Source: Planctomycetota bacterium (GTDB lineage: Bacteria; Planctomycetota; UBA1135; UBA2386). Taken from it: 64,000 nt of DNA. Under the pieces are notes generated by a model. It ran no database searches and had not been told where the DNA came from. It saw only the letters and a program-made list of their open reading frames with translations. The stretch is taken from NCBI GenBank assembly GCA_965228735.1, contig OZ245838.1, forward strand, positions 6,784,001-6,848,000. The letters run 5' to 3'. Below are positions 9,920 to 40,458 of this stretch, piece by piece (position 1 is the stretch's first letter; each line of letters starts with the position of its first letter). The position numbers were made by a program, and so were the translations under genes.

Positions 9920-10112
9920 ACCGCAGTGCCGCCGGTGGCCCCCGACCCGGCGGTCTTTTCAGGTTTGGGGCGTTTCGGGGTGGCCGGGGTCGGGCTCGAT
10001 CCGCTAGACTCCTCGCCCCATTTTCCGCCTCGCGGGGGATGGCTCTGGTTCCATCGATCGCGGCCGGCGGGTCGCGGCCAGAGCTGCTCCAGCGGGCCGG
10101 CACGAGGACATC

Positions 10113-36928: not shown

Positions 36929-37240
36929 ATGTCCAGAGTCTGTGACGTCACCGGTCGCCGCACCCGCGTCGGAAACAAGGTCAAGCGCCGTGGTCTCGCC
37001 AAGAAGGACGGGGGCGTCGGCCGCCGTGTGACCGGCCGCAGCAAGCGCAAGTTCAAGCCGAACATCCAGCCGATCCGGGTCCTCACCCCGGAAGGCAAGA
37101 TCCTGCGCCTCAAGGTCGCCACGTCGGTGATCAAGAAGGGCATCGTCACGATCAAGCAGGGCGACAAGCTGGTTTCGTTCCCGCTCGTGAAGGCCGTCCG
37201 CGGCCGCAACCGCGCGTTCTCGAAGGCGCAGAAGCAGTAG
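36929..37240 (+). CDS. rpmB: 50S ribosomal protein L28
   Basis: MSRVCDVTG...RRGLAKKDGGVG...KRKFKPNIQ. Confidence 0.95.
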   Translation: MSRVCDVTGRRTRVGNKVKRRGLAKKDGGVGRRVTGRSKRKFKPNIQPIRVLTPEGKILRLKVATSVIKKGIVTIKQGDKLVSFPLVKAVRGRNRAFSKAQKQ

Positions 37241-37332: not shown

Positions 37333-37821
37333 GTGACGATGACGGATCCGAGTGCGGGCGATGACAGCGTGGGGGCGTCGGGGGCGCTCGATCTCGAGGA
37401 CCCGGCCCAGCTCGAGGTCGCCGTGCGCGAGGTCGCGTTGCGGCTGCTCGCCGGCGGGGTGTCGCGAGCGACGATCTCGCAGCTGCAGCGCATGATGCGC
37501 GAGAACGTCGGCGACTATCCGTGGCAGGAGGTCACGCGCCGCATCCTCGCCGAAGACGTCGACGCGCAGTCCCTCGTGCAACGCGGGCTGACCGCGCAGC
37601 GCGACTGGATCTGGCGTGGCGGGCGGGAGACGCCCGGGCCGTCGCTGTCGCATCGCACGAAGGGCTTCTTCGCGAAGCTCGTCGCGCAGACCATCTTCCT
37701 TTTGATCTGGGCCGTCGTGCTCGTGGCCGGGCTGCTGCTGCTCAAGCACCTGACGGGCATCGAGATCTACGTCGCGCTCGACTGGCTCTATTCGCTGTTC
37801 CCGAGCCTGCAGCCACGCTGA
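37333..37821 (+). CDS. Hypothetical membrane protein
   Basis: C-terminal TM helix; GC-rich third codon positions. Confidence 0.6.
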   Translation: MTMTDPSAGDDSVGASGALDLEDPAQLEVAVREVALRLLAGGVSRATISQLQRMMRENVGDYPWQEVTRRILAEDVDAQSLVQRGLTAQRDWIWRGGRETPGPSLSHRTKGFFAKLVAQTIFLLIWAVVLVAGLLLLKHLTGIEIYVALDWLYSLFPSLQPR

Positions 37822-38032
37822 TCGGCGGGTCGCGAACAGAAAATTTCGCCCCCGGGGAACCGGCCTGGCGGCCGTTCTCTCCACGATCGGCTTGACGCCG
37901 GACCACTACGGTTCGGTTGCCGCGGTGGCATGGGGACTACGCGTTGTGGAGGACTGTCAAGGATTCGGTCGTAGCTGATTCACAAGTGTGGATTACGTCG
38001 TGGATTCGGCGGAAAAACCCGGGGGGCCCTTG

Positions 38033-38060
38033 TTGAAATCCGGTGGAACGGTGGCATGAT
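38033..38060 (+). promoter_or_regulatory. Sigma70-type promoter of the candidate ncRNA
   Basis: TTGAAA (38033-38038), 16-nt spacer, TGn extended -10 CATGAT (38055-38060); predicted +1 near 38067. Confidence 0.55.
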
Positions 38061-38066
38061 CCATTT

Positions 38067-38356
38067 CCTGGCTTCCGCCAAGTTCTCGAAACGCCTAGTC
38101 GAGGACGGACGTGGGACCGGCAGTGGGAGTCCGCTCCCGCTGGCAGCGAAACGCTCTCTGAAAGACCAGCCGCCTGGACTGACCATCTTGGCGGCGTCGA
38201 AGCCGGGTTCGCCCGACTTCGAGCTAGCAGACACCAGTCGGGTCGTGGCTGTGTGGTGGAGACCAGTATCCCCCCTCCCTAACCGCCCTCTCCATTGCGT
38301 AGCCTGATCCGCATTCGCGGGCCTCAGTTCTGACCGGCTGAGGCCCGCTTTTTTTT
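38067..38356 (+). ncRNA. Unidentified structured RNA of about 290 nt
   Basis: Closing stem 38067-38082 pairs with 38187-38207; internal hairpins; a 16-bp stem 38247-38262/38289-38304 with five G-U pairs and a C-rich loop; ends in an intrinsic terminator. Confidence 0.7.
38317..38356 (+). terminator. Rho-independent terminator
   Basis: GCGGGCCTCAG/CTGAGGCCCGC 11-bp stem followed by T8. Confidence 0.9.
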
Positions 38357-38470: not shown

Positions 38471-39081
38471 ATGACGAAACCGGGTTTTCGCAAGGGACGT
38501 CCCGCCGGGACGCTCGGGGCAGCAGGCCGTGGCCAGGGCGGCGAGTCGGGCGCGTTCGTCAGCGGCGCGCTGTTCTCGCAGGCGCAGATCCTGCAGCTGA
38601 TGAAGAACGAGTTCGCGCGCTCGCGGCGGCACGAGATCCCGCTCGCGTGCCTGCTGCTGCAGGTCGATCGGCTCGCGCAACTCGTCGACCTCTACGGGGC
38701 CGGGCTGCGGCAGACCGTCCAGGAAAACGTCGCGACGATGGTGCGCGACCGGACCCGGGGCGCCGATTTGCTCGGCGTGACGTCGGCCGACCGCTACCTG
38801 CTCGTGCTGCCGCACACCGGGCTCGAAGAGACGCGCGTCGTCGCGGACCGGCTGCAGCGGCGCTTCGCCGAGCTCGAGATCGCGGTCGACGGGCGGCCGC
38901 TCGCGCTCACGATGAGCATCGGCATCGCGGCGAGCGTCGACGGTGACACGCTGTTCTTCGACACCCTCGTGGCGCAGGCCGAGGCCGCGATCGACTACGC
39001 GACCGAGCGTGGCGGCAACACGATCGTATCGTTCGGCGAGACCCAGCTGCACGGCCGCGACGGTGGCGGCGAGGGCAACGC

Positions 39082-39085
<4 letters not shown>
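38471..39085 (+). CDS. Degenerate GGDEF-domain protein
   Basis: EFARSRRH..PLACLLLQVD, LTMSIGIA and AEAAIDYA...GGN; the GG(D/E)EF site reads TSADRY. Confidence 0.8.

Positions 39086-40458
<1,373 letters not shown>

Follow-up and report, generated by a model that had tools for sequence, protein, structure and literature searches.

The RNA gene and its neighbours

The window (the whole 64,000-nucleotide stretch of DNA that was analysed, from a Planctomycetota bacterium) carries, at about 38067-38356 on the forward strand, a non-coding RNA gene that is present in single copy and has a sigma70-type promoter as well as an intrinsic terminator (Table 1). The product is apparently a previously undescribed RNA of uncultured Planctomycetota. 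A sequence-only reading had proposed that a structured non-coding RNA is made here as a discrete unit, from its own promoter to its own terminator, and conservation, covariation and contigs confined to the RNA support that proposal.

Table 1. Features of the RNA gene and of its surroundings, in window coordinates
Feature	Position	Strand	Basis or remark
rpmB	36932-37240		upstream of the gene at 37333..37821
Upstream neighbour, no known family	37333..37821	+	found upstream in 60/89 loci
DnaA-box-like word TGTGGATTA	37987..37995	+	promoter comparison; binding predicted only
Sigma70-type promoter, TTGAAA / N16 / extended -10 TGG-CATGAT	38033..38060	+	pattern search
P1/P2, long interrupted stem capped by hairpin 38083-38105 with conserved GCCU(A/G)G loop (main subgroup only)	38068..38120	+	
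Variable hairpin 38121-38142, small hairpin GCGAAACGC 38145-38155, conserved single-stranded CUCUCU	38121..38160	+	
Hairpin with conserved CUGACCA loop	38169..38195	+	9/9 pairs with two-sided changes, 93% paired
Hairpin 38197-38222 and conserved single-stranded AGCAGACAC	38197..38234	+	fold; homologues by inspection
Core hairpin: 16-bp stem 38247-38262/38289-38304, lower extension 38239-38245/38305-38311, 26-nt loop 38263-38288	38239..38311	+	covariation
Near-invariant 15-nt loop core CCCUCCC(U/C)AACCGCC, including anti-SD-like CCUCC	38273..38287	+	comparison of homologues
Intrinsic terminator, 13 pairs and T8 tail (hairpin 38317-38348)	38317..38356	+	12/13 pairs with two-sided changes
GGDEF-domain gene, stand-alone, degenerate active-site motif SADRY, RxxD five residues earlier	38471..39085	+	Pfam PF00990, E 3.5e-15; TIGR00254
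Sigma54 response regulator, NtrC/AtoC-type	39082..40458	+	

The promoter pointed out by that reading, TTGAAA-N16-CATGAT, is present; it is the one promoter-like match in 1.7 kb, where 0.1 is expected in shuffles, and would place +1 near 38066-38067. The arrangement is shared by 82 distinct homologous loci; 9 loci have no match to the pattern, and 8 are too short. The terminator hairpin with its T8 tail is likewise present where it had been described, beginning 13 nt past the core hairpin, and in the family of the source genome (f1) it has a conserved hexaloop, CUGACC, which repeats the loop word of the hairpin at 38169-38195. The source sequence has significant fold z scores on both strands (-3.24 on +, -2.89 on -), and folding energy alone therefore hardly distinguishes the strand.

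Words resembling DnaA boxes recur in the homologues at about -46, -25/-22, -13, -2, +8 and +18 from the -35 hexamer, with a phasing of about 11 bp. A word within one mismatch of TGTGGAWAA, which we take to be the DnaA-box consensus, occurs in 39 of 82 distinct homologous promoters (five exact, all at -13); the controls, taken from the source genome (G000), have one in 39 of 5305 upstream windows and in 3 of 30 windows that look like promoters. Between the RNA locus and the GC-skew minimum, which adjoins dnaA, there are about 2.2 Mb. A second, divergent DnaA-like gene (G000:C1:868204-869412, + strand; L225) is 25% identical to the copy at 4567845; its matches at E<=1e-30 fall only in families that carry the RNA (12/12 genomes of f1, 2/3 of f3 and 5/11 of f7), a co-distribution that may be mere kinship.

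Contigs from four sequencing runs of four studies (X1, X2, X3 and X5, examined among 16 listed; X5 is RNA on record and the other three are guessed to be RNA) lie wholly within 38077-38351 with zero differences. Such confinement fits a discrete RNA, the contigs themselves carrying neither strand, ends nor level. Those of X1 and X2, from two studies, end at 38350 and 38351, in the U tract of the terminator and with no loose end, which weakly hints that they mark the 3' end of the RNA. X5 also contains a relative's copy of the RNA. In these four runs rpmB and the flanks had no RNA contigs, which is no evidence on level or read-through.

The GGDEF gene downstream encodes motifs, read from its translation, that include an RxxD ahead of SADRY, presumably the I-site. 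A GGDEF gene follows the RNA in 81 of 89 loci; of the other eight, five are short-flanked and three have a full flank without the gene. Among 16 distant loci it follows in 7 and is missing in 9, two of these short-flanked, and in four distant families it follows in 26 of 27 loci (L269-L295). A convergent gene lies downstream of the RNA in L296-L298 and L306-L308, and GGDEF orthologues without such an RNA upstream occur in G040, G037, G045 and G052, all of RNA-less families. Judged from gene order, the link between RNA and GGDEF gene is old and obligatory in neither direction. Upstream genes differ between families. In two distant loci (L143 of G041, and L219), rpoN stands divergent upstream, giving the order rpoN - RNA - GGDEF - sigma54 activator.

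A -10-like TAnnnT word occurs in 51 of 72 gaps between terminator and start codon, as against 3 of 72 controls (coding rather than intergenic DNA; loci without a recognisable start left out), and the GGDEF gene thus seems to have a promoter of its own past the terminator. The GGDEF N-terminus (38471-38500 in the window, and homologues) begins with a conserved M(T/S)xPGFR, followed by a variable linker; in one clade the codons after this motif are GGA GGG, partly complementary to the loop of the RNA.

Structure and conservation of the RNA

The sequence-only reading had described a 16-bp stem in which all non-Watson-Crick positions are G-U on the + strand, and a C-rich 26-nt loop. The stem has exactly five G-U pairs on that strand, the loop is present and holds CCCCCTCCCT, and its near-invariant core marks it as functionally constrained. 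The covariation check that had been proposed was positive: in 46 sequences (a selection from 83 distinct ones), the core stem is 95.5% paired with two-sided changes at 10 of 16 pairs, and core stem and terminator together are 92.9% paired with two-sided changes at 22 of 29 pairs, a result that none of 500 shuffles reached. In 33 distant sequences, including one from a phage, the core stem is still 79.3% paired (0/500 shuffles). While the stems covary, the loop core stays constant throughout the homologue alignments; 14 of its 15 bases are fixed across lineages, and the sole change is U to C, still able to pair with G. The constraint goes past the anti-SD part to include AACCGCC. Homologues were partly collected by the loop motif, and BLAST and a covariance model returned the identical core. 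A single-stranded loop that stays the same while its stem is free to change points to a partner that is likewise fixed.

The part 5' of the core hairpin varies from 53 to 290 nt in homologues (about 50 nt or less at the lower end) and is shorter still in G041; we infer that this variable domain is a lineage-specific add-on. A conserved 5' fold, comprising the 5' end paired with 38106-38120 and the hairpin 38169-38195, is 89.2% paired with two-sided changes at 20 of 25 pairs (0/500 shuffles), as scored on the same alignment from which it was derived (main subgroup, 35 sequences). The hairpin 38121-38142 was judged in homologues by inspection of folds, and the pairs of 38197-38222 were left uncounted where the alignment runs out of register. 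In seven loci of family f7 (L151, L152, L155, L156, L158, L159 and L160), the 5' domain contains a conserved element of another kind, GGGAAA(G)C ... GGAAAGGUGACAAUC, for which Rfam gives no match; it could be a separate structured motif.

The global fold proposed in the sequence-only reading differs from the conserved one. Its long closing stem is complementary at 16 of 16 positions and is preferred by the source sequence, but across the 35 homologues compared pairing reaches just 49.3% of its cells, equal to shuffles (239 of 500 as high), and in 27 of the 35 the 5' end pairs locally instead. Of the internal hairpins, those at 38083-38105, 38121-38142 and 38145-38155 stand, whereas the two at 38166-38177 and 38212-38242 are incompatible with the hairpins that homologues form.

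The locus matches no Rfam family above threshold. In Rfam 15, searched with the source locus and with 20 plus 16 further homologous and neighbouring loci, riboswitches, T-box, 6C, cuckoo-type and Yfr1 models gave only chance-level matches far under their gathering scores. The lack of tmRNA, RNase P, SRP or 6S identity, asserted earlier from the absence of hallmarks, holds as well: tmRNA, RNase P and SRP copies above their cut-offs sit elsewhere in the genome (G000:1861404, 6406941 and 6590642), and at the locus the 6S model has no match and a closing stem of both ends is unconserved. A LysM/L,D-transpeptidase gene lies downstream of a probable 6S RNA candidate at G000:C1:1961557-1961747 (- strand; L031:1501-1691), whose 28.1 bits fall below the cut-off.

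Distribution among genomes

By BLAST the region is found, in single copy, in 35 of 36 genomes of the same family, two genomes having a second short piece. The exact loop 16-mer occurs in 81 of 88 genomes of f1 (and in one more with one mismatch) and in four further families of the same order: f3 (3/3), f6 (1/1), f7 (10/11) and f8 (2/3). Families f2, f4, f5, f9 and f10 have one-mismatch loop matches only; ten such loci, inspected in f2, f9 and f10, lacked the hairpin-terminator context and were set aside. A 22-nt loop pattern recovers 89 loci from a collection of species representatives, most of them titled Planctomycetota; a few titles name other taxa or merely 'bacterium', with gene order unchanged.

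Outside the order, the covariance model matches 24 genomes in a 150-genome draw of the phylum. Twenty of these show the core, as CCCUCCCCAACCGCC, on a long hairpin that mostly stands ahead of a terminator; in G297, G298, G326 and G355 no core was found within one mismatch of the pattern. A 15-nt core pattern occurs in 61 of 401 genomes, some of these matches being chance, and it is unevenly spread by family (f30 9/9, f19 5/7 and f26 2/2; f13 0/24, f20 0/23 and f33 0/19). Exact matches at L299-L301, L303-L305 and L310, without the hairpin-terminator context, were set aside. L302 (G400) and L311 (G312) are ambiguous, with the core inside a strong hairpin that lacks the usual terminator; these are possibly divergent or second copies. 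Throughout, the conservation counts include kin that are not independent and a set that was partly gathered via the motif.

A copy of the hairpin in a phage contig

A copy of the hairpin occupies about 9966-10075 of the IMG/VR contig IMGVR_UViG_3300038548_000477 (L185), on the strand opposite to the genes on either side, which are for head morphogenesis and scaffold. It shares 42 of 44 bases with the host copies L048 and L049, whereas its lower stems differ yet remain complementary; the covariance model scores it at 36.2 bits (E 4.7e-9). Folded without constraint, it reaches a z of -2.12 only, with the loop partly paired. CTGACC words precede it. The position in a head operon, the complementary stems of its own and the absence of a match to PF00589 (no tyrosine integrase in this contig, which is about 70% complete) do not fit a phage attachment site. 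No further phage copy of the U form was found beyond this contig, none of the C form, and none in an annotated phage set; two related head operons (L223 and L224) have no copy of the hairpin, and the scan of a single metagenome returned four host-type loci.

The hairpin is directly followed by a small lipoprotein-like gene (L185:10123-10479, +) that runs against the head operon and has no PHROG match. In another gene of this phage (L247:4558-4977, - strand), GGUUAGG spans the ribosome-binding site, and the coding region contains a Watson-Crick site of 11 nt, both complementary to the loop; the 11-mer, with 0.05 expected, was noticed post hoc, and the protein has no assigned function. In a further IMG/VR contig (L180), an exact 17-mer sits in a different hairpin just ahead of a start codon, probably by chance. 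The phage copy would keep or redirect host regulation: the same loop on newly evolved phage stems suggests that control through it matters in infection, and it provides a candidate target gene.

Search for targets

No conserved target was found; every target test, run on our own gene calls and with one genome freely scanned, failed or stayed at chance level. Duplexes predicted between the loop and 5305 start regions of its own genome are hardly stronger than those with coding sequence as control: at -24 kcal/mol the counts were 85 against 51 of 4726. One match to the loop, at 14 of 15 positions, sits at a start codon (G000:76215); 2 of 12 shuffled loops do equally well, and the site was rejected. 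The gene at 76239 that follows this match belongs to a tRNA-flanked mobile element (G000:C1:71008-78599) with genes that look by eye like an integrase and an excisionase. An excess of TAGGGAG, considered as target sites in a transposase leader, dissolved into copies of one transposase gene (11/14). The word GGAGGCGGTTATG occurs in none of 90 relatives, and GGCGGTTGGGGA is absent from 47 of 91 genomes, with 30 examined sites striking no protein twice. The LysM/L,D-transpeptidase start region and neighbour genes within 1.5 kb were also tried and rejected; a site ahead of a dnaA-like gene is unkept in 19 orthologues, and GGTTAG-type words upstream of genes resemble -10 elements.

Only 291 of 5305 called genes (again our own calls) have GGAGG before the start, and occlusion of ribosome-binding sites would therefore reach few genes. 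Low use of the Shine-Dalgarno sequence, together with -10-like words near many starts, suggests many leaderless or short-leader mRNAs in this genome. Neither Hfq nor CsrA was found in G000, which is 93% complete. Three likenesses seen by eye were dropped: to a tRNA-Ser end; to the T-box bulge, the T-box-like bases being paired in a covarying stem; and to telomeric CCCTAA, in a genome without a telomeric repeat.

Possible functions

The reading that we favour, with roughly even confidence and largely by analogy, is that of a regulatory RNA that base-pairs in trans, in the manner of 6C, cuckoo or Yfr1. This reading is favoured because the one tolerated change in the core keeps the ability to pair with G, and because C-rich loops bind mRNAs in 6C and CcnA, and are anti-SD-like in cuckoo and Yfr1. 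As expected of the trans-acting class, it is non-coding and has a promoter and terminator of its own. We infer an abundant transcript with defined ends: separately transcribed, it would present its C-rich loop on a long stable stem, the loop would bind G-rich stretches of several mRNAs (ideally 5'-GGCGGUUGGGGAGGG-3' or parts of it), pairing would need neither Hfq nor another chaperone, and the promoter would be controlled by DnaA or by a regulator with 11-bp repeats. The sequence-only reading had offered a trans-acting sRNA that binds ribosome-binding sites through the loop; trans action is the part that remains favoured, and the loop search gave no conserved target of that kind. The GGDEF link, moreover, is stronger than an unrelated sRNA needs and counts against trans action.

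That link is also among the grounds for considering, tentatively, a protein-binding decoy or scaffold, with the loop (and, in f1, the CUGACC loops) as ligand of a conserved protein that is titrated or modulated as by CsrB or 6S; this is possible, if rather unlikely. The degenerate GGDEF neighbour could then control turnover of the RNA, as CsrD reportedly does for CsrB, and the phage copy could be a decoy for the same protein. A core fixed at 14 of 15 bases with no conserved complementary site found would fit, as would CUGACC in two hairpin loops, the CTGACC words ahead of the phage hairpin and the long-kept link to a degenerate GGDEF gene. Against it, no candidate protein was identified and CsrA was not found; most distant families lack the CUGACC loops, RNA and GGDEF gene occur without each other as described above, and one large loop is unlike CsrB, which carries many short repeats.

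The other proposal of the sequence-only reading, an attenuator or c-di-GMP-type riboswitch controlling read-through into the GGDEF and sigma54 genes, the terminated RNA being a stable by-product, retains the weak support of synteny. Upstream genes vary, while the GGDEF gene is retained in 81 of the 89 loci and, among distant families, in 26 of 27; the terminator follows 13 nt after the hairpin, and one clade's first GGDEF codons hold the partial complement GGA GGG. That complement, however, is missing from the source genome and from distant families. A leader would always have the same downstream gene function on the same strand, and here convergent or unrelated genes lie downstream in f19, f41, f50, f53, f76 and f85, and no such gene follows the phage copy. 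The would-be aptamer region is almost absent in the shortest homologues, inspection revealed no conserved antiterminator, and no riboswitch match was obtained in 36 homologous and neighbouring loci. Because the GGDEF gene is not always downstream and apparently has its own promoter (the TAnnnT words in the gaps past the terminator), an attenuator is quite improbable. A small peptide or leader peptide, with the loop read as L-P-N-R in an 83-codon ORF (38056-38307), is largely refuted, and we give it next to no credence: the frame is open in the source, and the U/C position is a synonymous third codon position, but the remaining third positions never change, the C run has insertions that alter the frame, and Pfam gives no match. 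The small ORF that might have explained the region was looked for, and none is conserved among 99 distinct homologues, of which 14 have a stop within six codons upstream, 20 no start after the last stop and 87 no ATG. Equally hard to credit is a guide or chaperone pairing with ribosomal RNA. The genome's own 23S rRNA has two 11-bp complementary sites (two sites in 5 of 2000 shuffles, at least one in 186 of 2000), yet in G003 only 6 bp of either site remain, and f7 and f8 genomes, in which the loop is identical, have 4 bp left of the first; this refutes the reading for these two sites.

A bolder synthesis, which we consider speculative and doubtful, would make this a core RNA of several uncultured Planctomycetota lineages under replication-initiator-type control, its loop the ligand of an essential partner (a protein, or part of the translation or transcription machinery) and the phage copy a captured decoy or mimic. 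If true, it would be a housekeeping-like regulatory RNA of a new kind with a phage-borne counterpart. A loop kept across many families, and present in environmental RNA assemblies, points to central post-transcriptional control.

Comparison with known RNAs

No paper describing this RNA was found in the literature; catalogues of candidate RNAs outside Rfam might list it. No characterised small RNA was found for these Planctomycetota lineages, and six supplements of PMC10690425 held no match. Like CsrB/CsrC with CsrD, the RNA adjoins a degenerate GGDEF gene and repeats a short word in its loops; unlike them, it has no GGA loops, CsrA was not found, and the GGDEF protein is a stand-alone domain of 204 aa.

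The closest parallels are RNAs with C-rich loops. The C-rich loops of 6C RNA of Actinobacteria bind targets without chaperones (PMC6486639); shared with our RNA are the high-GC host, a C-rich hairpin loop as the presumed binding site and probably no need of Hfq, which was not found here. The source RNA has one C-rich loop on a hairpin but no homology to the 6C family model: it presents a single 22-26-nt loop with the core CCCUCCCYAACCGCC and a variable 5' domain of 50-290 nt, in another phylum. The alphaproteobacterial cuckoo, RSs0680 and alpha-r14 RNAs likewise keep an anti-SD-like loop while their stems vary, although cuckoo RNAs, as described in PMC4615179, have two to four adjacent hairpins each with CCUCCUCCC, often in several copies, whereas here a single hairpin in single copy carries a motif that includes AACCGCC. 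Yfr1 and Yfr10 of cyanobacteria (PMC2190773, PMC6778093) are abundant sRNAs that occur throughout their lineage except for losses in some branches; an anti-SD-like, single-stranded motif defines them and is ultraconserved, and Yfr10 displays it in a loop on a stem. Their motif ACUCCUCACAC, in Yfr1 placed between two stem-loops, is absent from the source sequence; at 54-69 nt and in another phylum, they resemble our RNA no further than CUCC. CcnA of Caulobacter pairs with GGGG of its target leaders through a looped CCCC run (PMC8959179); the likeness lies in the C-run loop and, should the DnaA-box-like words prove meaningful, perhaps in a link to the cell cycle, the differences in the lack of a sequence match and in the distance of our locus from the GC-skew minimum next to dnaA. 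The RNA belongs to no family tested, and by analogy its mode of action is probably like that of the C-loop sRNAs.
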